A stretch of 30,468 nucleotides of DNA from Bdellovibrionales bacterium (GTDB taxonomy: Bacteria; Bdellovibrionota; Bdellovibrionia; Bdellovibrionales; UBA1609). How positions within the stretch are numbered: position 1 is the stretch's first letter; each line of letters begins with the position of its first letter. The DNA lies in contig JAYTDP010000197.1 in assembly GCA_043735865.1 (NCBI GenBank), positions 1-30,468 of the forward strand, written 5' to 3'. Shown piece after piece: positions 54-12,018 of the stretch. The position numbers were made by a program, and so were the translations under genes. The notes under the pieces are model-generated. The model was not told where the DNA came from. It did no database searches and worked only from the letters and a program-made list of their open reading frames with translations.

Positions 54-527
54 ATGGAAGAAAATCAGGTGTGGAAAAAATGTAGCCGCTGCAAGAACGC
101 AATATCGTATGGTTCGCCTTATTACGTTTGTAGCGTTTCGACATGTAATGGGCAGCGAACTGGGTACGTATTTTGCCGTCACCTCTGTTTTGAAGCCCAT
201 TTGCCGGGTGCACGTCATCGCGACGCGGGCGCTATAGAGCAAAAAGCGCCTTCGTCTGCGGCGCCGGACCGACCTTCGGAGCGAAAAATTATTGCTCCAA
301 AAGCCGCGTCAGTCGGAATGCCCTCGACCCATACATCCGGACCAAAAGAAATTCTAATTATCGCCTCTCGGCTGAAAGAATATATCGACGCCAAAAGCGG
401 ATTTAATACCTCGGGACAAGTGTTAGAAATTCTATCTGACTCTGTCCGAAACCTTTGCGACAGAGCGATAGCGAATGCACGCGAAGACGGCCGCAAAACT
501 GTATTAGACCGAGATTTTAAAAAATGA
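54..527 (+). CDS. Bacterial histone-fold protein with N-terminal ZZ-like zinc finger (ZZ-histone type), 157 aa
   Basis: N-terminal C-x2-C-x12-C-x4-C-x9-C-x3-C-x3-H-x5-H. A Pro/Ser/Ala-rich linker follows. C-terminal EILIIASRLKEYI...FNTSGQVLEILSD...AREDGRKTVLDRDF closely resembles the Bdellovibrio histone Bd0055 pattern (EVLVVTSKVK...NTS...DGRKTVMARD). ATG at 54 is preferred over the TTG at 3. Confidence 0.88.
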   Translation: MEENQVWKKCSRCKNAISYGSPYYVCSVSTCNGQRTGYVFCRHLCFEAHLPGARHRDAGAIEQKAPSSAAPDRPSERKIIAPKAASVGMPSTHTSGPKEILIIASRLKEYIDAKSGFNTSGQVLEILSDSVRNLCDRAIANAREDGRKTVLDRDFKK

Positions 528-1507
528 GGCCGGGCTCTATTCGTAAAATTCTCATCATTCGTTTTTCGAGTCTCGGAGATATCGCGCAAGCTTTTGCCGC
601 CGCCCAGCTTTTAAAAGCGGCGAATCCTCATGCCGAAATTCACTGGGTCACCCGATCCGATTTTACCGAATTTGTCCGCAGAATCCCCAGCGTATCGCGC
701 GTTTGGTCTCTTTTGCGTACCGATGGTGTTTTGGGTCTGTTAAAACTCGGACGAGACTTGAGACGTGAACAGTTTGATCTCGTCTATGACGCTCATTCAA
801 ATATGCGATCATACGTTTTATCGATATTACTTTGTCGCCCAGGGACGCGCACAGTTCGACGATCAAAAGAACGGGTGAAACGCTTCTTACTCTTTACTCT
901 TCGCCGCAATACCTTCGAAAAACCGTACCGAGCGGCATGGTCTTTTGTGATTCCACTTAAAGCATGGATTGAACTTCCGGCCATCTTGCCTACTATTGCC
1001 TGGCAATCGCGCTCAACCAATGTTTCCGTCGCAGATCTTATATTATTTGCGCCGAGCGCCGCGTGGGAGTTGAAAAAGTGGCCGATGGAGTACTGGCGTG
1101 ATTTAATCGGTCTCCTGCCGGATTACAAAATCGGCCTTCTTGGAGGTCCTGATGATAATTTCGATGAGTTGGTGACGGCCGCTCCGAACCGAGTTCAAAA
1201 TTTTGCCGGCAAAATGAATTGGTCTGAAACTGCACAAGCCATTCACGATTGCCTTCTCGTTGTTTCAGCTGACACCGGCGCACTGCACATTGCGGATAAC
1301 TTTAATAAACGATCGATTGCCCTGCTAGGGCCGACCGCCTTCGGATTTCCATCGCGACCGAATTCGACGGTCCTCGACATCGAACTTTGGTGCCGCCCGT
1401 GTACAAAAGACGGGCGCGGCAAATGTATCAACGCCGAATTTAAAAAATGCCTAAAAGATATTCGTCCCGCGGACGTAGCGTCGAAAGTTCAGGAACTTCT
1501 TCAATGA
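524..1507 (+). CDS. Glycosyltransferase family 9 (ADP-heptose:LPS heptosyltransferase, WaaF/RfaF-like)
   Basis: KILIIRFSSLGDI N-terminus, YDAHSNMRS, KKWP, DTGALHIA and ALLGPT are typical GT9 motifs. ATGA overlap with the upstream gene. Confidence 0.9.
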   Translation: MRPGSIRKILIIRFSSLGDIAQAFAAAQLLKAANPHAEIHWVTRSDFTEFVRRIPSVSRVWSLLRTDGVLGLLKLGRDLRREQFDLVYDAHSNMRSYVLSILLCRPGTRTVRRSKERVKRFLLFTLRRNTFEKPYRAAWSFVIPLKAWIELPAILPTIAWQSRSTNVSVADLILFAPSAAWELKKWPMEYWRDLIGLLPDYKIGLLGGPDDNFDELVTAAPNRVQNFAGKMNWSETAQAIHDCLLVVSADTGALHIADNFNKRSIALLGPTAFGFPSRPNSTVLDIELWCRPCTKDGRGKCINAEFKKCLKDIRPADVASKVQELLQ

Positions 1508-2802
1508 TTTACTTTTTCTTTTTACTCTATCGGCTCATTTTCATTCCACTTGCCGCCCTCGCGATTCCGCTTATTGCATTATTTAATTCGAAAGTCCGGA
1601 CCGGCCTCGTGCTACGGATGAAAGTCCGATCGCTCCGCTACCCGCTTAGCGAGCGCCCGTTTTGGATTCACGCTTCGAGCGGTGAATTTGAATACGCAAA
1701 GCCGGTGATTCGCGAGTTGAAAAAGCAATTTCCGACTATTCCGATTCTGGTGACTTACTTTTCGCCTTCTTACAAAGATCAAATCGCCCGGTTCTCAGGC
1801 GTCGATCGCTTCGAACCTCTGCCACTGGACTTGCCCGGGGCCGTCCACAGCTTCCTGGAGTTTCACAAGCCTCGTGCACTCCTCATTGCCCGAACGGATT
1901 TGTGGCCGGAGCTTCTTTGGCAGGTCAGCCGTAAGCGCATACCTTCTCTCCTTTTTTCTCACACGCGCAAAAAATCAACGCCGCTGCTTCATTTTTATTA
2001 TCGAGTCATTTACGCGCTCCTCACCGAAATCTTCGTCGTAAGTGAAAAAGACGCATTCGAAGTCGGCAAAACTTCAGTGAATCCGTTTATGGCCGCCGGT
2101 GACACGCGCTACGATCAGGTTCATTTTCGCTTGGGAGAAGCCAGGCGCCTGCCGGCCACTGTAGAACGCCTCGTTGTCGCCGGTGGCGATTTCGCCGTCA
2201 TAGCAGGGTCGACTTGGGGCGAAGACGAGGACATTCTGTTACCGGCTTTTGCAGCGCTAAAAGAGTTTCCATTTCGCTTCATTTTGGTTCCCCACGAGAC
2301 AGATGAGCACCATCTGTCCACGCTCAAGAAAAAAGCCAGTCACTTAAACCTTATGTTACGCTTCGCCAGTTCGACGGAAGATACACGAGAATCAAGAGTA
2401 AGTGTTATCGACCACAAAGGAGTTCTTGCCGATCTCTATCCTTTGGCGGGAGTCGCTTTCGTCGGCGGATCATTTAAAAAGAAAGTGCACAGCGTGATGG
2501 AAGCACTAGGAGCCGGTAAAATCGTGATCGTGGGCCCATACTATGAAAATAATCGCGAGGCCGTCGAATTTCACGACGTGCTCGTTCACGAGGATATACG
2601 AGCGGTCAATGTCGTGAAAGATTCCAAAGAATTTGAAAGTTTAGTCTTAAAAATTTCCGCATTGAGTCCAGAGTCACGAAAAGCCGCTGAGAACGTCATT
2701 CGGGCGCAGTTTCAGCGCCGCCTTGGTGCCACTGCAAAGGTGATTGACTGGTGCGATTTTCATCTCGAAAATAACGGAACATTCAATATTCCCATTGCAT
2801 AA
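1504..2802 (+). CDS. waaA: 3-deoxy-D-manno-octulosonic acid (Kdo) transferase
   Basis: N-terminal membrane anchor, WIHASSGE, DLWPE, GDTRYD, AGSTW, and AFVGGSF...HSVMEA. The start at 1504 overlaps the upstream stop (ATGA). Confidence 0.88.
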   Translation: MIYFFFLLYRLIFIPLAALAIPLIALFNSKVRTGLVLRMKVRSLRYPLSERPFWIHASSGEFEYAKPVIRELKKQFPTIPILVTYFSPSYKDQIARFSGVDRFEPLPLDLPGAVHSFLEFHKPRALLIARTDLWPELLWQVSRKRIPSLLFSHTRKKSTPLLHFYYRVIYALLTEIFVVSEKDAFEVGKTSVNPFMAAGDTRYDQVHFRLGEARRLPATVERLVVAGGDFAVIAGSTWGEDEDILLPAFAALKEFPFRFILVPHETDEHHLSTLKKKASHLNLMLRFASSTEDTRESRVSVIDHKGVLADLYPLAGVAFVGGSFKKKVHSVMEALGAGKIVIVGPYYENNREAVEFHDVLVHEDIRAVNVVKDSKEFESLVLKISALSPESRKAAENVIRAQFQRRLGATAKVIDWCDFHLENNGTFNIPIA

Positions 2803-2815
2803 AGGAACATAAAAA

Positions 2816-4123
2816 ATGCCGACGTCAACACCGACTCCCTTCGAGCCCATTCGCGAAAAAGCTGGGCTTAACGGTTACAAAAAAGGCGACGTTCTCGTGA
2901 TGTTCGGCGAACTGTTCGCTCGTGGTTACGCCAACGGCATAGTCGACGAAGCAACCAAGTTAGGGATGAAGGTTATTTTTTCTACCGTCGGGCGACGTGA
3001 GCCCGATCAGACTCTTCGACCTCTGAATGCGGCTGAGCTCGCAGAAAAGGACCAACCGTTAATCAATATACCGCTCGAAGCAGGATTCGACCTTGAAGCT
3101 GACTCAAAGGGCGTGCGCCCCGTCGATCAATTAAAAGAATACGGCCTCACCGGTTGGGAATCGGCAAAATTAGATTGGGCCAACATTGAAGAGGCTAAAG
3201 TTCGCGGCCGCGAACGCTTTCGAAAAAACGTCGATGCGTTTTTGCTTGAGGTAAAAAAAATTGTTCCGAACGGCGCCAACGTCTTATTTGTTCACACGAT
3301 GGCAGGCGGCTTTCCTCGAGCCAAAGTCGTAATGCCGATTGCCAATCGCGTCTTCAAAGGTTCGGGTGCACGATTTATGTCGTCGAAGATGTTTTGGGAG
3401 AGCGAGATCGGCAAGCTTTGCGATTTAAGTTTCAGCGAAGTCACTGCCCACACTTTTTCAGAACTCATTGAACGTTCGGCAGAACTCCGCGCGCAAATTG
3501 AAAAGGCCGGCGGGAAGGTCGGATACGCAGCGTATGGATATCACGGCAATGAGGCTCTCATTCATGGAAAATACACCTGGTTTTCTTACTCACCTTACCT
3601 GCAAGGTTGGGCGAAAATGGGTCTTGAAAACATCGCGCGGGACGCCTTTTCGAGAGGTATTAGAGCTTGCGTTTATAACGTGCCAGAGATCTTGACCAAT
3701 TCGTCGAGTATTTTTTTGGGCGTTGAAATCTCCCTTTATTCACTTATTGCAGCCCTGCGAAAGGAACAAGGCAACAGTGATAAAGTGAAAGGCGTTATCA
3801 CAAAATGCGAAGCGCTTCTTAAAGACGGACACACCTATCAAGATGTCGAGAGAGTCACGAGTCAGTATCTCGAAAATCCCGCAGTGCTCAACTTTCCGAA
3901 GTTTGAAAATTGGCCGCAGCACAATGGACCGGAGCAAATGGAACTGATGCGCCAAACATCCACCGCAATGCTCGAGATGCACAAGGATCAAAAAAATCTG
4001 TTAACGGCCGAATTGAGTGAAATTGTATTTCGCGCCTGCGGTGAAGTCATGTTAGCTGAAGCCTTTGGGCCACGAGGGCCCGCCCTATGGGTCGGACATG
4101 ATCTCGTGGCGAAATGCTTTTAA
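2816..4123 (+). CDS. fabMG: Probable FabMG-family enoyl-ACP reductase
   Basis: KKGDVLVMFGELFARGYANG, TVGRR, PLEAGFD, HTMAGGFPRAK, AYGYHG, YLQGWAK, PEILTNSS and WVGHD match my recollection of the FabMG family. SD-like AAGGA lies upstream. Not confirmed by search. Confidence 0.65.
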   Translation: MPTSTPTPFEPIREKAGLNGYKKGDVLVMFGELFARGYANGIVDEATKLGMKVIFSTVGRREPDQTLRPLNAAELAEKDQPLINIPLEAGFDLEADSKGVRPVDQLKEYGLTGWESAKLDWANIEEAKVRGRERFRKNVDAFLLEVKKIVPNGANVLFVHTMAGGFPRAKVVMPIANRVFKGSGARFMSSKMFWESEIGKLCDLSFSEVTAHTFSELIERSAELRAQIEKAGGKVGYAAYGYHGNEALIHGKYTWFSYSPYLQGWAKMGLENIARDAFSRGIRACVYNVPEILTNSSSIFLGVEISLYSLIAALRKEQGNSDKVKGVITKCEALLKDGHTYQDVERVTSQYLENPAVLNFPKFENWPQHNGPEQMELMRQTSTAMLEMHKDQKNLLTAELSEIVFRACGEVMLAEAFGPRGPALWVGHDLVAKCF

Positions 4124-4135
4124 ACCTAGATTGAT

Positions 4136-6796
4136 TTAATGGCAGTGCGATTCGGATCCAACCGACTTGCTATTATTCAACATAACCAAGACTCGCAAGA
4201 GAGCAAAGCGATCGACGGATAAGTCCGGCGCTTTCGGCAATCCGTTGTCCCCAGAAAAATGACCTTGGTCATCCCGCTCGGGAAGCAAATTCACTTTTAC
4301 CCCGCCAGTCGATTCGAATTCATAAAGTTCGGCTCGCGCACGTCGCGCCAGTGCTTTATCGGCTGGCGAGAGCATTGCTGGCATCACTGGAGTTGGTGAC
4401 GTATCAATCGGTGCTCCCCGGCTGTACTGGTAAGGATCGTCGTTAAAATACCAAAGATCCTTCCATAAAATATCCAGCTTATCGCTCCATGAATCACTCT
4501 CAGGAATACGTCCGTGCTTCACTAAGAAAACGAAAATTCCCTTCAGTTTAGCTACGCTGTACGAGTCGTTTTTCATTTCTTTGATTTTCTGAGAAAGGAA
4601 AATATGAAAGCGCGGGAATGACGCCATAACTTCTTGTCCGTTCAAAATCCCATCACGATTCGCATCGTAGACGGTGAACAAAACTTCGACGTAATGCAAA
4701 ACCGTTGAGATCGTTGCGATCTCAGCCTTTTCAATATAACGCCGATCTTCGCATGGAATCTTCGCAACCTCAGTCAGAGCGTTAAAGAAAACATCTCGGC
4801 TTTGCGGACTGAGACGATTCAGGTAACTCTGCATGTAGGGAAGATTTGAAATTTCATTAAAGTGATTTCTTCCGAAATTCGCTTGAAAGCAGCGGCGATC
4901 AATTTTTCGATTATTGAAAATGTCGTCTGGGGTGTTTTCAGTTCCGCAAACTTTAGAAGTATTGGAATAAAATTCCTGCCGAACTTCGCCGCCGGACCAA
5001 ATAAACGCAATCAGCTCGAGGCCTTCGGTAAATGTAAGAAGATGGCGTGGGTCACGGGAATCATCCGACGGAAGCTGAATGCCGTTTCCGCTGAAGGTAA
5101 ACATGTTGCCTTCACCAAAAGAACGATTCCCGACACGCTCACTCCGCGGATCAAGAAACTTAACGTCCGAACCCAAGGGCCGAATAGCTTGGTAGAAATT
5201 TTCCAGCTCTTCCATCGTCACACCGGACATAGCGACAGCACGTTCCGGCGTCGCGTAGCCGCGAATCAACAGACGCATCAGGCAACCAAAAATGTTGAGC
5301 CGGCTTAGATTTGAAAGGCCTAGCTTCACATTGTATTTTTTAAGTTCTTTTCGAGGGACAAGCCATACTCTCGCGTCTTTTTCGCGGAACATCGGTCGCA
5401 CGTTTTTCACGATGGATTCAATGTGATAAACGCGATTATCTTTTCCGATATTAGTACCCGTGAAATATTCCGACAGGTCGAGGGAATTCAGCGGATCCTC
5501 TAGGTGTTCGTCGGCAAGACCAGTCCATTTGACGTTCTTGGCGACTTGAACCTGAAGCGCGCTCAGAATACTTGGATTGACTTGCGCATGTAATTTTCGA
5601 AAAGCGAGTTGGCTTATGTATCTCTGCGAGTCGGCCCACACATAAAATTCTTTACGAGCTTCGTTTAGAGCCGATACCGTGAAACCTGAAACGCGGTTGT
5701 CGCCCACGAGTGAAGGGTCCTTTAATATTTTCCCAATCAGCAATCGAACCACCGGCTTAAGGGAGGAAGCCTGGGCGTTTAACGGCAGCATTTCAATTTT
5801 ACTAAGAGAATCGATAAGATGATCAAGGCTGTCGTAGGTGATCACATTATTCGGGTGGACATTGAGCGTGCTTTGAAGTGTTGCAAACAAATTTTCGACA
5901 AACTCAATTAAGCTTTCAAGGCCTTCTCCTTGGGTCAACGAAGGTCGGCGTCTTAACGTTTGACCCTCAACGTACAGACCGTAAAGTCGGGCGGCCGTTG
6001 TAAATAAAGGCTTCCAATCACTTGGTGAAATCGCGTCCGGGCTTGTTCCAAGCATAACCTCTTTAAACGACGCGATGACATTCCTCAGATCGTTCGGATC
6101 CGTGGCCTGAGGCCGCAACTCTTTCCATTTGATAAATAGACGGACTTCCGAAAGCAAACGTTGCAGTGAATCCATCGAGTAGGAGGCCTGAGACGAAATC
6201 AGTCTATCCGATAAAATTTCGGCCGTCTTTTTGAGTGCCGCCGTTGCCTCGCGGACAGTCTCACGACTCGCGTTGAAGCGTTCACCCTTTAGTTCGCTAT
6301 GAAGACCGTAAAGACGAATAAACGGCAGGTGCCGTGCCGCTTCGGACCGAATTACTTCAATGCATTCGAGCATTCTTTTAAATTCAGCGTGCGAAATAAA
6401 GTCCTCGGAGCCCCCCATAATGACGACTTTCACCTTCATCGCTTCTTTTAAAAGTGCCGGCTCAATTTTATTTTTGGGCAAATAGTGTCGATTTAGAAAT
6501 TCGGCGATTTCGCTTGGTGCGTAGCCCGTTCGATCTTTGCCTTTCGAATAAAATTCGAAATCCTGAAGGGCTCCCGTCACGCAACCCATGAAATTATCGA
6601 GCTCCGGGCGGCTCATGTTGCCGCTCAAATAAGAGTCGACTCGGGCGGTGATTTCTCCGAGGCAATTAAATTTAGACCGGCCGAGACTCGCATTCACTGG
6701 CGGAGCATTGTCACCGGTTTTAAGTTTACAACCGCCAATGATGACCGTCATCGCAATCGCGATTCCAAAAAGTATGTGGTGAGCTTTAGAAGACAT
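4136..6796 (-). CDS. Large predicted lipoprotein with EF-hand loop (paralog A), 886 aa, function unknown
   Basis: Start chosen at ATG 6796 with an AGGGGG SD upstream. Signal peptide and lipobox MSSKAHHILFGIAIAMTVIIGG|C. Canonical EF-hand loop DANRDGILNGQE. Collinear similarity to 8277..10481. Confidence 0.8.
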   Translation of the reverse strand: MSSKAHHILFGIAIAMTVIIGGCKLKTGDNAPPVNASLGRSKFNCLGEITARVDSYLSGNMSRPELDNFMGCVTGALQDFEFYSKGKDRTGYAPSEIAEFLNRHYLPKNKIEPALLKEAMKVKVVIMGGSEDFISHAEFKRMLECIEVIRSEAARHLPFIRLYGLHSELKGERFNASRETVREATAALKKTAEILSDRLISSQASYSMDSLQRLLSEVRLFIKWKELRPQATDPNDLRNVIASFKEVMLGTSPDAISPSDWKPLFTTAARLYGLYVEGQTLRRRPSLTQGEGLESLIEFVENLFATLQSTLNVHPNNVITYDSLDHLIDSLSKIEMLPLNAQASSLKPVVRLLIGKILKDPSLVGDNRVSGFTVSALNEARKEFYVWADSQRYISQLAFRKLHAQVNPSILSALQVQVAKNVKWTGLADEHLEDPLNSLDLSEYFTGTNIGKDNRVYHIESIVKNVRPMFREKDARVWLVPRKELKKYNVKLGLSNLSRLNIFGCLMRLLIRGYATPERAVAMSGVTMEELENFYQAIRPLGSDVKFLDPRSERVGNRSFGEGNMFTFSGNGIQLPSDDSRDPRHLLTFTEGLELIAFIWSGGEVRQEFYSNTSKVCGTENTPDDIFNNRKIDRRCFQANFGRNHFNEISNLPYMQSYLNRLSPQSRDVFFNALTEVAKIPCEDRRYIEKAEIATISTVLHYVEVLFTVYDANRDGILNGQEVMASFPRFHIFLSQKIKEMKNDSYSVAKLKGIFVFLVKHGRIPESDSWSDKLDILWKDLWYFNDDPYQYSRGAPIDTSPTPVMPAMLSPADKALARRARAELYEFESTGGVKVNLLPERDDQGHFSGDNGLPKAPDLSVDRFALLRVLVMLNNSKSVGSESHCH

Positions 6797-8201
6797 GCGA
6801 GAATCCCCCTTCGATCCGATCATTATCCCGATATTTAGAAATGAAACTTTGTACGCCATCAAATTTATCGGGAGCTCCAAATAAATCGAATCCGACGTAG
6901 AGCTTCCAGCTGATTTCAGGCGCGTAACCGAGCTGACCCATGAGCCACTCACCACGATCACTAAACGAATACGTATATTTAAGTTCGCTTGACCATTTCA
7001 AATGGCGCTGCGGATAGACGGGATATCTCGCACCAACTGACCACAATTTTTCGAATCCCATTTTCTGTGTGGATGAACTCAGCTGCGCCGAAATCAGGCC
7101 GCTATCATTGGTGGCGGCCTCATCGCGATACACGAAGCCAGAATAGACAAGCGCTCGGGTATCAAAAAAGTGAGAATCGCGAGAGATGCCTATACCGTAG
7201 TAGTTCGCATCACGAACGGGAGTTTGCTCCCATTCCGCCGGAAGCTTTGGATCACTGAAGCGTTCAGCAGTTGCCGACAAGTAGATGGCGGAGCGCTCCC
7301 CTTGAAATCCAGTTTCAGCGGTCGCTAATCGATGTCGGATGATCGACGGATGAATCACGGGCTCGATAACACCCGTTGCCAGGTTGTTGATCCCTTTAGT
7401 TTCGATCGAAATATGATATTGATTAGCCGGTTTATCGGCTACTGAGAAGCGAGACCAAGGCCCATAGGTGTCGTCACCCGTTCGTACGGAAAATCCAACT
7501 GATGGATTAAAGATAACCTCCGACACTTCCGGCTTCTCGACATTATACATGATTTCTCGATCGCCCTGGTTGATCTGTAGGCGCGAAACCGGTGGGCGGA
7601 ACCAACGGTTCCCTGAGACAAGCTGTCCGTTCTCAATTTTGAAATTCGCCTGCTGATCAGGAAGATGAATGCCCGATACGAAGGCCGTGAAATTGAGATT
7701 GCTGCGGCGGCTTTCGATGAAGAGGCCGGTCAGTCCCATTTGCTGAGGGCGGACGTAATCCCAACGGAAAAGCGGCTGCCATAGTCCTATTCCCCAGTCT
7801 GTGTCGAGCCGACTCCACTCGTGCCGTTGACGCCCGAAAGAAACAACCATGTGAGAATCGCCATCGCTTACACTTTTGAGGTCTCCAACTTGAGCGTAAA
7901 AGTCTGGAAAATAAAAATTAAAATCGTCTTTGTTCGACAAAGGGATGATTGCGCGAACGTCAGCTTTTGTCTTAAGAAAACCATTCAAGTAGACTCCGTC
8001 CGCGCGAAAACTCGGAAAGACCGTCGAATAGGTATTTGTTTGCGACTCATACGTTGAGTCGGTTACATATTGGGACTGGGAGATGCCGACCGAAAGTGAT
8101 TGCGCGTTCGACGGCGCAGCGAAAAGACAACACTGTGCAATCGCCACAAAAAGAGCGAGCATTCGTCTCGTAAAATAGGGATTTGAGAACTTGGTCTTCA
8201 C
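6786..8201 (-). CDS. Predicted outer-membrane beta-barrel protein (paralog A), function unknown
   Basis: Sec signal (..LFAAPSNA|Q), alternating hydrophobic/aromatic strands and a C-terminal beta-signal-like GGFSHVF. Paralog of 10498..11880. Start is GTG 8201 or ATG 8162. Confidence 0.78.
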   Translation of the reverse strand: MKTKFSNPYFTRRMLALFVAIAQCCLFAAPSNAQSLSVGISQSQYVTDSTYESQTNTYSTVFPSFRADGVYLNGFLKTKADVRAIIPLSNKDDFNFYFPDFYAQVGDLKSVSDGDSHMVVSFGRQRHEWSRLDTDWGIGLWQPLFRWDYVRPQQMGLTGLFIESRRSNLNFTAFVSGIHLPDQQANFKIENGQLVSGNRWFRPPVSRLQINQGDREIMYNVEKPEVSEVIFNPSVGFSVRTGDDTYGPWSRFSVADKPANQYHISIETKGINNLATGVIEPVIHPSIIRHRLATAETGFQGERSAIYLSATAERFSDPKLPAEWEQTPVRDANYYGIGISRDSHFFDTRALVYSGFVYRDEAATNDSGLISAQLSSSTQKMGFEKLWSVGARYPVYPQRHLKWSSELKYTYSFSDRGEWLMGQLGYAPEISWKLYVGFDLFGAPDKFDGVQSFISKYRDNDRIEGGFSHVF

Positions 8202-8276
8202 CGGCCGATTTTATCATTTTGGCCGGGAAACACTAAGCTTTGCCTCTTGTTTCAACTCACGTTTTGTAAAAACTAT

Positions 8277-10481
8277 CTAGTGGGCCGAGAGCGATGATAA
8301 AATTTTCAAAATTATCGAGCGATCCGCTGTTAGCTTCCAGCTTTTTTCGCTCCATTTCCAATTTAAGTACCTTAGAATAGTTAACGGTTTAGCCGGATTT
8401 GGGGCCTCTCCATAGCGAAGCATATAAGTGAAAAGCGCTCGAACTTCTTTCGCGTCGGCCACTGGATCAACACCCATGATCCCGGCGATGACAACTTGGA
8501 AAAGCGGTAAAGCAGTCAACCCTTCCTGCAGGTCCAAATATCCGTTTTGATCGACATCAAATCTGATCATTAGGACTTCAATGTACTGGAGCAAGACTCC
8601 CATTTCATAAATGTCATTGTTCTCGATCGGTGTCTGGGTGGCGCCGCCGGTGCGATTCGTAGTTTCGAGGCCGGTCAGTGCCGTCTTCCAGTCTTTGGCG
8701 TTCAAAGTCGCGAAGTACTCCACCATTTTCGGCATGTTCGCGTAATCGCGAGAAAATAGATCGCGATAATGCTGCCGGAAACAATGAACATCAATGGCAT
8801 CATCAGTATGCGGACAAAGAGCGGTGGAGGGATCCGCAGGATCCCCTACGAGATCAGCTCGCAGTAGCTTGCCCGTATTGATACCTGAATGAACAAAATG
8901 AGCATATTCAATAACTTCGTAAAAATTAATCTGAGTATCGCCGTTCGCACGGGTGGTAAATAGATTGGCCTCACGAAAAATTCTCGGGCCAAGTTCGGTG
9001 TCGTTTTCTTTCACGACATCTAATAAGACGAGGAACGGTTTTATCGCCGTGTACGCGGCATCAAATTCTTTTTCATTTACTCCGCCCAAATTGTGACGAC
9101 GTATCGGATCGGCAGTATAGGCCTGCATCACCAACCGGATAGCAACTCGAAGAGCGTTGTATTTCGTTTTTGAATAGATATCCCAGACTGCTGCTGGATT
9201 TCGCAGAAAAATAATTCGGCGCATAGAATCCATTGGCAAAACGTAGGTGTCTAAAACGCCTTTCATTTCTTCGATCGCCTCGACCCCCTGGCCGACCCGT
9301 TCGTTACCGATCAAATAAAATTGTACGGAAATGAAATTTTCGAATTCAGTTTCGAGGCGTTTCATTTCTGCAAGGGACCATCCCGGCACGTTTGTTCCAT
9401 ACTCCGGTAATATTTTGTCGACTAAGGTACTCCACAAATTTTGCATTTGGGCGAGCGAGATATTGAGCGGAAGCTTATATTTTTTTGCATATTCTTCGAA
9501 AAGATTGTCGAAGGCAGAAGATGGAATTATGTGGTCCGGTCGGCGTGCGAAAGCTTCATTAAGGATCATGAAAACGCTGCGGCCCATGCGTTGTGTTTCA
9601 TTCAGCATCGCAGCTGTCTTCATGCTGTCTTCGCCTAAGAACAGACCGAATCTCATCGAAGTCGAAAACGCGTGGCCACCGAACCGAAAGAGGCCGTCCC
9701 ATTCGTCGGGACCGATCACTCCCGAGTCACCCGGGAAAAGCACGGCTTTCGCGGCCGAAATAAGCGGAACAAATTCAGCCGCCTTTTTTAACCCGTCACC
9801 GTTACCTCGCCGCTCAAAAACAGAATTGAGTTCATTCAAAAAACTTTTAAAATCAGACAGCTTGTAAGTGACTTTTTGCTTCGCTATGAGCGAACCGACA
9901 CGAATTAAAATGTCTTCAAATTTCACAGCGGCCAATCCCACCACATCAGGGTCAGGCTTTTGGTCTTTCTTAGTTTGAAACAAAACTTTTATGTAAGGCC
10001 GCAACTCTTGCGACATGCCTCTCAGTTCTTCGAACAATTCAATCAGACGGTTCAGTTCTCTTTGCGTCAGATATAATTCGTGGCCGCCGATCAAAAGTTG
10101 CTTCACGTGCATAAACTGACTTAAGAGCTCGTCATTAATTTTAATCGCGTCCGGTTTGTCTCCGCCCAAAAAATTAGTTTCAAGAAATCGTCGGAGTTCG
10201 GTGGCCTTGTAACCCCGCTTAGGATCACTCCCTTCAACTCGGTTCATAAATGTGCTGATCGCACCTCGAAAGCACGTCCAAAACGCGTTCACTTCGTATT
10301 CAGATGCTTTTCCGTTAACGTAATTTTCCATGATATCAGGACTGTTTTGTAAGCAATCTGTGCCTTTAAGACTGACAATCGGCACCGTCACTCTTGGAGT
10401 GTCTTCGTTTTTACAGCTTAAAGTGACGATGAGAGCCGCGGTAATGACGCTCGAAATACAAATTCGCATTCGACGCGACAT
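8277..10481 (-). CDS. Large predicted lipoprotein with EF-hand loop (paralog B), about 734 aa, function unknown
   Basis: MSRRMRICISSVITAALIVTLS|C lipobox. Canonical EF-hand loop DVDQNGYLDLQE. Mostly helical character. Paralog of 4136..6796. Confidence 0.8.
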   Translation of the reverse strand: MSRRMRICISSVITAALIVTLSCKNEDTPRVTVPIVSLKGTDCLQNSPDIMENYVNGKASEYEVNAFWTCFRGAISTFMNRVEGSDPKRGYKATELRRFLETNFLGGDKPDAIKINDELLSQFMHVKQLLIGGHELYLTQRELNRLIELFEELRGMSQELRPYIKVLFQTKKDQKPDPDVVGLAAVKFEDILIRVGSLIAKQKVTYKLSDFKSFLNELNSVFERRGNGDGLKKAAEFVPLISAAKAVLFPGDSGVIGPDEWDGLFRFGGHAFSTSMRFGLFLGEDSMKTAAMLNETQRMGRSVFMILNEAFARRPDHIIPSSAFDNLFEEYAKKYKLPLNISLAQMQNLWSTLVDKILPEYGTNVPGWSLAEMKRLETEFENFISVQFYLIGNERVGQGVEAIEEMKGVLDTYVLPMDSMRRIIFLRNPAAVWDIYSKTKYNALRVAIRLVMQAYTADPIRRHNLGGVNEKEFDAAYTAIKPFLVLLDVVKENDTELGPRIFREANLFTTRANGDTQINFYEVIEYAHFVHSGINTGKLLRADLVGDPADPSTALCPHTDDAIDVHCFRQHYRDLFSRDYANMPKMVEYFATLNAKDWKTALTGLETTNRTGGATQTPIENNDIYEMGVLLQYIEVLMIRFDVDQNGYLDLQEGLTALPLFQVVIAGIMGVDPVADAKEVRALFTYMLRYGEAPNPAKPLTILRYLNWKWSEKSWKLTADRSIILKILSSLSAH

Positions 10482-10497
10482 ACATTTCAACTGGCAA

Positions 10498-11880
10498 TCA
10501 ATAGACATAACTGAACCCCATGCTCACGCGATCATTGGCGCGGAACTGACGAATGATTGCTTTATCATAACGAGTGACCTGGGAATCGTAGACGGCCAAC
10601 ATGTCGAAAGAGGCTGTGAGGACCCATTGGTCGAGAACATTGTATTGAAACTGACTCGTCAGCAAGGACCCGTTTTGAATGCGATCATAGGTCAATTCGA
10701 TTTTATTATGAAGACGCGTGAATTTGGACCAAATCGGATAATTGAGTCCGATTCGATAAGCTTCGAGCCAGCGGGTCCGAATCTCAAATTGCGATTGTGC
10801 TGAAACGGTGTCGCCCGAGTCTGGCTTCACAGAACCCCAACTTTTCAAGAGTCCACCGTACAATGTGAACGCCGAAGGTCCTTCTCCCACCAAATCATAC
10901 GACGCAATGGCCGTCGCCAATGTTTGATCTCCGATTTGTTGACTGATCAACCGCTCGTTTTCTGGCATTTTTTGCGGACGTTCATAGGTCAACGACGACA
11001 AAACTTTCCAGCGGTCGACTTGGCGACGCCAATCGGTGGTCATGATGTGATGATAAGGAAAAACCGGCACGACCGTAACCGGCGCCTCTTGAGTGGCATC
11101 GAGTAATCGCAAGCGATAATCGTAACTCATGAGCATCTGATTGATCGGTTTGTAGGCGTACCCAAAACCAACTCCGTCATTATCTGTCAGCTGATGATCG
11201 ACCCGAAAAGCCGCGCCCGGAGAAAATACAACTTTCGCTGTCCCAGGCCGATCGATCGAATATGTCAGTGGAGTAAGGTTGGGACCAATGAGAGCTTCAC
11301 TCGGAGGACTTATAAACCATGGGCTTTTTGATAAAAGCTGTCCATTTTCGGTGTAAAAATGCGGACCTTGCTCCGGAATATAAATCGGCGAGATCATACC
11401 GAGCCAGCGGGATGAGTCGCGCCGTGTTCCTTCAAAAAATAAACCGGTTAGGCCAACACTTTCGGGGTTCGCTTTGTTCCAGGCGAATCTAGGCTGCCAA
11501 AGTCCGCTCTCCCAGAATTCGTCGGCCTCACTCCATCCTTCTAGTTTACGTCCAAACGACGAGTCATATTTGTCGGAGTGGTAAGTGGTAAAAGCTTCGG
11601 TCGGATTAAGAAAAGGATATTCTTCAGTGAAGCTGTAGAAGGCATGTACATCGAGGTGATTCTCAAGTTTTCCGCGCTTACTCGAATAGTCGAGGTTTAA
11701 ACCCGCTGTCGAAAATTGACTTTCTGTAGCTTCGGTTCCGAAGTAGGCCTGACCAGAACTGAAATAAGATTCGTAGTTCGCTTCGAACGTGCTTTTCGCA
11801 ATCGCGAAAGCCCGCGCTTTTGGCGCAGGTAAAAAAGCGAACCCCACAATGAAGACGTACAAAAGTCGTGAAAATCTCAT
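10498..11880 (-). CDS. Predicted outer-membrane beta-barrel protein (paralog B), 460 aa, function unknown
   Basis: ATG 11880 with a GAGGA SD. Signal peptide MRFSRLLYVFIVGFAFLPAPKARA. C-terminal MGFSYVY. Shares FGR..W...D..W..GLWQP.F.W...P...GLTGLF with 6786..8201. Confidence 0.78.
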   Translation of the reverse strand: MRFSRLLYVFIVGFAFLPAPKARAFAIAKSTFEANYESYFSSGQAYFGTEATESQFSTAGLNLDYSSKRGKLENHLDVHAFYSFTEEYPFLNPTEAFTTYHSDKYDSSFGRKLEGWSEADEFWESGLWQPRFAWNKANPESVGLTGLFFEGTRRDSSRWLGMISPIYIPEQGPHFYTENGQLLSKSPWFISPPSEALIGPNLTPLTYSIDRPGTAKVVFSPGAAFRVDHQLTDNDGVGFGYAYKPINQMLMSYDYRLRLLDATQEAPVTVVPVFPYHHIMTTDWRRQVDRWKVLSSLTYERPQKMPENERLISQQIGDQTLATAIASYDLVGEGPSAFTLYGGLLKSWGSVKPDSGDTVSAQSQFEIRTRWLEAYRIGLNYPIWSKFTRLHNKIELTYDRIQNGSLLTSQFQYNVLDQWVLTASFDMLAVYDSQVTRYDKAIIRQFRANDRVSMGFSYVY

Positions 11881-12018
11881 GGCTTCCTCATCTGACAATA
11901 CCTTGAAGGCGTCACCCAGCAAGAGATATTGCCGGAATGTGCTGCAATCCGTTACTTAGCCTTGGGTTTGGAATTTTTGAATTTGACTGAGGTCTAGAAA
12001 AACGGCGCAATCTTCGAC

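Follow-up and report, generated by a model that had tools for sequence, protein, structure and literature searches.

Two ancient pairs of genes for a DUF1302-like barrel and a large lipoprotein, putative cognate outer-membrane complexes of Bdellovibrionota

Results

A stretch of 30,468 nucleotides (nt) from a Bdellovibrionales bacterium (GenBank assembly GCA_043735865.1, contig JAYTDP010000197.1), which is analysed here as a whole and referred to as the window, carries in its region 4136–11922 two gene pairs, each encoding a predicted outer-membrane beta-barrel and a large lipoprotein. The evidence supports the conclusion that each barrel and the lipoprotein encoded downstream of it constitute a self-contained cognate outer-membrane complex which exists in two ancient versions and whose partners are predicted by modelling to bind each other. 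This conclusion is based on the adjacency of both genes in all families analysed, a start codon overlap kept across these families, matching trees of both gene types and a prediction of the complex. A sequence-only reading of the window had proposed such cognate units formed by four co-oriented genes in the order barrel B, lipoprotein B, barrel A and lipoprotein A. Four long open reading frames (ORFs) are indeed present in this order, all on the minus strand, with lengths given below in amino acids (aa):

10498–11880, minus strand: barrel B, predicted 460-aa outer-membrane beta-barrel precursor with signal peptide MRFSRLLYVFIVGFAFLPAPKARA and C-terminal end GFSYVY
8277–10508, minus strand: lipoprotein B, 743 aa from the ATG at 10508 (734 aa from the ATG at 10481), with lipobox cysteine C32, predicted all-helical structure and one canonical EF-hand loop
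6786–8201, minus strand: barrel A, 471 aa from the GTG at 8201 (458 aa from the ATG at 8162), modelled as an 18-stranded barrel
4136–6796, minus strand: lipoprotein A, 886 aa, with lipobox IIGGC and a C-terminal extension compared to lipoprotein B
10498–10508, minus strand: 11-nt overlap of the B pair, ATGTCTATTGA, with the lipoprotein B start codon within the Tyr-Val codons of the barrel B beta-signal
6786–6796, minus strand: 11-nt overlap of the A pair, ATGTCTTCTAA, with the lipoprotein A start codon within the His-Val codons of barrel A and Gly-Gly codons (GGGGGA) 7 nt upstream

Linkage and duplication of the gene pair

Of 401 genomes of the predatory phylum Bdellovibrionota searched in six frames, 277 gave a barrel match and 259 a lipoprotein match. 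By taxonomic family, both genes were either co-present or co-absent with nearly equal tallies: each was found in 27/27 genomes of family f1, 51/53 of f2 and 17/17 of f24, and the pair was not found in the searched genomes of f16 (0/34), f21 (0/14) and f13 (0/9). The lower count of the lipoprotein arises in the most distant families, in which search sensitivity falls. From 40 loci of 16 Bdellovibrionota families, we collected 47 barrels with 47 lipoproteins. The barrel gene adjoins the lipoprotein gene in 47/47 cases, 45 of them co-directional with the barrel first; the two remaining pairs, both from family f20 (L054 in genome G128 and L055 in genome G009), are adjacent yet divergently transcribed. 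Clustering of all neighbouring ORFs of the 40 loci revealed no third conserved gene. Common presence or absence by family and constant adjacency thus agree with the proposed cognate unit. All taxon-labelled matches to the pair in the genomes and databases searched belonged to Bdellovibrionota; word-indexed homologue searches recovered 6–14 relatives only, and an alignment used as query reached no further. Among the homologues, the length of the lipoprotein ranges from ~700 to 1200 aa and that of the barrel is constant. In genome G241, the B-type lipoprotein is encoded by two overlapping ORFs (L028, 7725–8153 and 8120–10405), which represents either a frameshift, possibly in a pseudogene, or an assembly error.

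The assembly containing the window (2.1 Mb, 82% complete) harbours exactly two barrel and two lipoprotein copies. Barrels A and B share 30% identity over 368 residues (E = 1e-38) and lipoproteins A and B share 21% identity end to end over ~780 columns (E = 3e-40); hence, the paralogy of both gene types is far beyond chance, and the shared motifs quoted in the sequence-only reading are visible in both alignments. Barrel B matched the family profile with E = 4.7e-147 and was placed in the B-type clade of the barrel tree. The lipoprotein tree consists of two clades with 100% and 96% support in the Shimodaira–Hasegawa-like approximate likelihood ratio test (SH-aLRT), each of which holds the Pseudobdellovibrionaceae-type family of the window as well as the Bdellovibrio family. 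Lipoprotein B, for which the database gene call is identical at 743 aa, belongs to the B-type clade (100% support). The barrel tree is compatible with the lipoprotein tree, with matching A- and B-type clades, the same partner assignment and zero swaps. As each of the two lipoprotein clades contains both families and the barrel tree matches, the pair was duplicated as a unit before the split of Pseudobdellovibrionaceae and Bdellovibrio, which corroborates the old duplication postulated earlier from the divergence of the copies. The copies are arranged in tandem in the family of the window and lie 30–55 kb apart in Bdellovibrio.

A start codon embedded in the beta-signal

In 42 of the 45 co-directional pairs, an in-frame ATG is located exactly 11 nt before the end of the barrel stop codon. 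This ATG arises where the terminal Y/H-V-F beta-signal is encoded as TAT-GTN or CAT-GTN; in the overlapping pairs Tyr is always encoded by TAT and His always by CAT, and TAC or CAC occurs in none. G-rich glycine codons are found ~7 nt upstream, where Gly-Gly codons supply a GGNGG stretch. The three co-directional exceptions have lost the barrel Val (SYSF, SYIF) and the overlap ATG therefore cannot form, and the two divergent pairs, in which no partner start overlaps the barrel gene, carry TTC or TAC at the position of the Tyr/His codon. The overlap pattern is strong evidence, at the sequence level, for a selected translational coupling of barrel and lipoprotein.

In the window, the GGGG of a Gly codon 7 nt upstream of the lipoprotein B start codon could act as a Shine-Dalgarno sequence. 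The ATG at 10508 is the likelier start of lipoprotein B, because the same 11-nt overlap is kept in so many pairs of the family. The 16-nt gap previously described for the B pair is obtained only if the second ATG at 10481 is used as start, whereas the 75-nt gap between the pairs and the 11-nt overlap of the A pair read as described. For barrel B, the likeliest start is the ATG at 11880, which is preceded by GAGGAAG and coincides with the end coordinate given in the sequence-only reading. The database gene call of barrel A begins 13 codons downstream of the GTG, at the ATG at 8162, and this gene thus has two candidate starts. The barrels of the divergent f20 pairs end with F-I-F or Y-L-F, without an embedded ATG.

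Fold and family of the barrel

The barrels carry signal peptides and a C-terminal aromatic beta-signal. An AlphaFold2 model of barrel A calculated from a 15-sequence alignment was confident (predicted local distance difference test (pLDDT) 83.5, predicted template modelling score (pTM) 0.80), so that the earlier assignment of these genes to beta-barrels could be upheld. The model consists of 18 long strands connected by short turns and long loops in alternation, and the barrel starts directly after the signal peptide.

DUF1302 emerged as a lead from a language-model search with the barrel. A search of predicted structures returned DUF1302/PF06980 clusters with template modelling (TM) scores of 0.70–0.72 and root-mean-square deviations of 3–3.7 Å over ~380 residues. 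Comparison by hhalign of a barrel profile (47-sequence alignment) with a DUF1302 profile made from 22 proteins of the same phylum scoring above the Pfam DUF1302 threshold gave a probability of 97.8% (E = 8.8e-13, 347 columns), and plain profile hidden Markov models (HMMs) of both sets matched reciprocally. As structure matches, profile-profile comparison and reciprocal HMM matches agree, the barrel is, judged by sequence profiles and models, a divergent branch of the DUF1302 superfamily. It is not a member by the Pfam cut-off: PF06980 (gathering score 23.2 bits) did not match either barrel at E ≤ 1, and a six-frame search with this profile gave 0 matches in the 82%-complete genome of the window. 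Scans of all four proteins against Pfam and NCBIfam yielded no family above threshold, only sub-threshold EF-hand matches, and a PDB sequence-profile search with the barrel found nothing. Matches to CowN and RibE in the family scans were dismissed as chance. The best fold matches among solved structures were AlgE and OccAB/OccK with TM scores of about 0.5. The sequence-only reading had recognised no family for either protein, which has to be revised for the barrel and stands for the lipoprotein. A sister genome of the same genus (G048) encodes, at another locus (L020, contig 4: 51228–51818), a separate 413-aa protein above the Pfam DUF1302 threshold. Proteins above this threshold were also present in 12/20 sampled genomes of f16, the family with 0/34 genomes positive for the barrel-lipoprotein pair.

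The strongest conservation within the barrel family is concentrated in loops L3 and L4, with the motifs GRKxxxWSxxDxxWxLGLWQP, GLTG, PxQGP and NPWF; further conserved motifs are KPxNQ, YH and NDR. Conservation of L3 and L4 is probably the pattern expected of loops which fold into the barrel and bear its function. Polar residues are strongly conserved as well (barrel B numbering, n = 47), namely R111 (47/47), S117 (40/47), D120 (43/47), H277 (42/47), E/D283 (45/47) and D450 (43/47). This set, which includes Ser, Asp and His, could line a channel or form a catalytic site.

DUF1302 is described as an uncharacterised 18-strand barrel without solved structure, which is paired with DUF1329 (PMC13499233). 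The DUF1329 gene is situated immediately downstream of the DUF1302 gene in Pseudomonas, Shewanella and others, and its product has been suggested as a binding partner of the barrel. From fitness data, other authors put forward ‘export of a cell wall component’ as the role of DUF1302, an esterase role of DUF1302/DUF1329 was hypothesised from Pseudomonas putida fitness data, and both proteins were proposed to work with a resistance-nodulation-division (RND) pump. The barrel analysed here shares with this system the 18 strands, OccAB/OccK and AlgE as best solved matches and the partner encoded directly downstream. The systems differ in the loop motif, which reads GxQQVVWGExFGFxxADxVNPKD in DUF1302 instead of the GRK motif of L3/L4, and in the partner, which is LolB-like DUF1329 (PF07044) there and a 700–1200-aa all-helical lipoprotein here. 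The downstream protein did not match PF07044, and no associated RND, BNR or LuxR genes lie beside the pair in the 40 loci.

Features and fold of the lipoprotein

A signal peptide and a lipobox cysteine were identified in both lipoproteins of the window and in nearly all of the 47 homologues, one of which is a split ORF and a few of which have ambiguous N-termini. The lipobox cysteine C32 is at least 90% conserved and the lipobox conforms to that of bacterial lipoproteins, so that lipidation is predicted. The cysteine pairs C52/C79 and C565/C576 show at least 90% conservation, too, as would fit disulfides of an exported protein. The model of lipoprotein B is all-helical with a recurring order of helix, short bridge and helix, and is good only for residues ~40–360. 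A profile self-comparison by hhalign revealed an internal repeat of ~110 residues (~68–175 versus ~185–292; probability 95%, E = 2.7e-8); a third, weaker copy follows at ~295–410. Fold searches with the lipoprotein gave no meaningful match, and neither SusD nor TPR or Sel1 was found; it appears, as far as modelled, to represent a new helical fold family.

A canonical EF-hand loop lies ~90 residues from the C-terminus in both lipoproteins of the window and in 24/47 homologues. The loops of the window were identified by pattern match:

8523–8558, minus strand: canonical EF-hand loop of lipoprotein B, DVDQNGYLDLQE, residues 651–662
4631–4666, minus strand: canonical EF-hand loop of lipoprotein A, DANRDGILNGQE

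Against the Pfam EF-hand models (PF00036, PF13499), the scores of 16.6 bits (EF-hand_1, lipoprotein B) and 14.6 bits both fall short of the cut-off of 25.4. A PDB profile search with the lipoprotein returned only weak EF-hand matches (E ≥ 0.02), to NCS-1 and KChIP, on the stretch of the lipoprotein B loop. UniProt labels the orthologous lipoprotein of Bdellovibrio bacteriovorus ‘EF-hand domain-containing’.

Predicted complex of the B pair

Prediction of a complex between barrel B and lipoprotein B resulted in a score of 0.50 compared to 0.02 for the best control, and three runs agreed on 75–91% of contacts. This lends weak support to binding of the cognate partners, which is plausible at the level of the models; the geometry is putative. 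The confident contacts of the barrel are all located in loops L1, L4, L5, L6, L7 and L9, which form the extracellular face in standard barrel topology. On the side of the lipoprotein, they comprise the 15 residues after the lipidated cysteine and residues 85–117. The position of the contacts on the long-loop face of the barrel is the one hint at the role in prey contact which the sequence-only reading had suggested, and the residues concerned are not conserved.

Genomic surroundings, expression and annotation

Upstream of the four-gene block, divergent genes encode acetyl-CoA synthetase and ribonucleotide reductase; downstream, convergent genes encode FabMG, a Kdo transferase and a heptosyltransferase. 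Two non-coding segments of the block are listed here:

8202–8276, minus strand: 75-nt spacer between the A and B pairs, with a 6-bp GC hairpin (CCGGCC ... GGCCGG) abutting the GTG of barrel A
11881–12018, no strand assigned: divergent intergenic region common to the four-gene block and the acetyl-CoA synthetase gene

The intergenic region is presumed to contain the promoter of the block. A promoter and terminator scan of the block revealed no signal above shuffles. The hairpin (8201–8226) has a perfect 6-bp GC stem and a 14-nt loop, and ends on the GTG with which barrel A begins.

Kdo transferase and heptosyltransferase genes neighbour the A-type pair only in families f1 and f2, which belong to the same order. 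In the window, these genes (524–4123) are convergent to the pair with FabMG between them; in Bdellovibrio (L022, 9273–11596) they are divergent. The synteny with genes for lipopolysaccharide (LPS) is thus an order-level feature kept through a rearrangement.

In B. bacteriovorus, the B-type pair corresponds to CAE80231 (barrel) and CAE80230 (lipoprotein), and a second pair exists at about 2.266–2.269 Mb of the same genome, which we take to be that of strain HD100. In four studies, RNA libraries yielded contigs that span the HD100 pair, with uneven depth in one run, which is compatible with transcription of the pair but is no proof of it. RefSeq and UniProt call the barrel orthologues of B. bacteriovorus (P0196–P0204; L119, 5595–7028) ‘transposase’ or ‘putative transposase’, and public records otherwise list the orthologues, the lipoprotein partner among them, as ‘hypothetical protein’. 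The transposase label looks like a propagated mis-annotation, because the protein models as an outer-membrane barrel without a transposase domain. A literature search by accession and keyword found no paper on the barrel-lipoprotein pair.

Discussion

We tentatively favour the reading that the barrel is a passive, substrate-specific channel equipped with an accessory lid or binding lipoprotein, because no energy-coupling or inner-membrane partner is kept nearby, the barrel appears to be channel-like, with in-folded loops that are conserved, and the partner is predicted on the loop face. Barrel and lipoprotein would be co-translated and assembled as a cognate outer-membrane complex. The barrel would provide an 18-stranded, channel-type passage which has neither a plug nor a periplasmic domain and whose loops L3 and L4 are probably folded into the lumen. 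The lipoprotein, a large lipid-anchored helical protein presumably built of ~110-residue helix-loop-helix modules with two disulfide-type cysteine pairs and one EF-hand loop, would be seated on the loop face of the barrel as lid or binding subunit. The two anciently diverged pairs may handle two different substrates, which are plausibly hydrophobic or envelope-derived by analogy with DUF1302/DUF1329. The analysis demonstrates the paralogy, the barrel fold, the remote relationship to DUF1302, the obligate adjacency, the start overlap and the joint duplication; physical binding, geometry, transport direction and substrate are what we infer from sequences and models.

Several observations weigh against this reading. 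The complex prediction included only residues 25–460 of barrel B and 33–595 of lipoprotein B, and a pass as weak as the one obtained proves wrong in the majority of cases if the guess was not likely beforehand. Conservation at the interface is below average for the barrel (1.18 versus 1.62) and average for the lipoprotein; as the interface is not enriched in conserved residues, conservation does not support the lid geometry. The C-terminal half of the lipoprotein was modelled poorly (pLDDT 30–65), and since the EF-hand loop is canonical in only about half of the homologues, calcium binding is not essential to the family. The B-type lipoprotein of Bdellovibrio carries Asp at position +2, which is an inner-membrane retention signal in lipoproteins of E. 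coli. The depth of the RNA libraries may result from DNA carry-over, and their contigs carry no information on condition-specific expression. Finally, the analogy with DUF1302 transfers little, because DUF1302 itself has no known function.

A role in export or envelope biogenesis, with the barrel as exit for a lipidic or glycolipid component and the lipoprotein as periplasmic scaffold or adaptor comparable to AlgK or to DUF1302/DUF1329 with an RND pump, would agree with the homology to DUF1302 and its proposed export function, with AlgE as one of the best fold matches and with the LPS genes beside the A-type pair in f1 and f2 in two different orientations. The presence of the pair in all or nearly all genomes of f1, f2 and f24 would also suit a housekeeping envelope role. 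However, whole families (f16, f21, f13) were negative for the pair in the genomes searched, the synteny is limited to one order, and the 40 loci have no conserved neighbour that would be an inner-membrane pump, a synthase or a periplasmic partner. The lipoprotein, moreover, has no TPR or Sel1 match, and its predicted contacts lie on the loop face and not at the periplasmic turns. We consider this explanation unlikely. Membership in the AlgE/AlgK system of Pseudomonas aeruginosa was rejected: there was no match to Alginate_exp (PF13372) or to Sel1/TPR and no polysaccharide synthase in the neighbourhood, which leaves a general fold similarity. AlgK is periplasmic, whereas the contacts predicted here lie on the loop face; the gene order here is barrel then lipoprotein.

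The sequence-only reading had considered two further models, a SusCD-like importer and a Slam-like translocon dedicated to its own lipoprotein, and the pair belongs to neither family. The SusC/SusD (RagA/RagB) systems of Bacteroidota likewise consist of duplicated barrel-then-lipoprotein cassettes with a helical lipoprotein, and the weakly predicted lid-on-loops geometry is similar. SusC is, however, a TonB-dependent transporter of ~1000 aa with 22 strands and a plug, whereas the barrel here has ~440 mature residues, 18 strands and neither plug nor TonB box; PF07715, PF00593, PF07980 and PF14322 did not match, and the lipoprotein shows no SusD fold. In a Slam-like (type XI secretion) system, the barrel would bring its lipoprotein to the cell surface, where the latter would be the functional molecule, e.g. 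an adhesin or a calcium-dependent prey-contact factor. One-to-one adjacency with apparent translational coupling, the cognate co-divergence of both proteins and the predicted contacts of the first ~15 residues after the lipidated cysteine with extracellular-type loops would be expected of such a system, and a lipoprotein of variable length beside a barrel of constant length resembles variable cargo and a constant carrier. Yet the barrel does not match DUF560, has 18 strands rather than 14 and possesses no N-terminal periplasmic TPR or POTRA domain which could receive a substrate. Its most conserved residues lie in L3 and L4, as in substrate channels, and known Slam cargos are beta-rich and not large helical proteins; this model is thus rather improbable. 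Still less probable is that the barrel acts enzymatically in the outer membrane, for instance as a hydrolase of lipids or esters, with the lipoprotein as regulatory or substrate-presenting subunit. The phylum-wide conservation of the polar residues and the esterase role hypothesised for DUF1302/DUF1329 speak for it, but in the DUF1302 profile aligned to the barrel, these Ser, Asp and His residues have no conserved counterparts, and conserved charges are equally expected of a channel lining or of salt bridges holding in-folded loops. Among substrate-specific channels, the OprD/Occ proteins show no sequence-family match to the barrel. Occ channels are not known to have a dedicated lipoprotein partner.

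Beyond the passive channel with lid or binding lipoprotein favoured here, one may speculate that the pair represents a new, phylum-specific class of transporters: a plug-less, TonB-independent, 18-strand DUF1302-like barrel capped on the outside by a surface lipoprotein of stacked EF-hand-like modules, with which predatory bacteria would take up prey-derived hydrophobic molecules in a possibly calcium-dependent manner. Such a specific scenario is improbable, and if true, it would provide the first mechanistic handle on the DUF1302 superfamily.

The link to DUF1302, tested here by structure and profile comparison, the start codon inside the beta-signal, the matched trees, the internal repeat of the lipoprotein and the controlled complex prediction are new. 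The start codon overlap illustrates neatly how the same bases can encode both a protein-sorting motif and a signal for translational coupling. The relationship with DUF1302 ties the barrel to a widespread family with fitness phenotypes but without structure or mechanism. Among the unannotated outer-membrane gene units found here in Bdellovibrionota, the pair is one of those conserved most consistently, usually in two ancient copies, and as it occurs in the culturable and genetically tractable B. bacteriovorus HD100, its function is directly testable.

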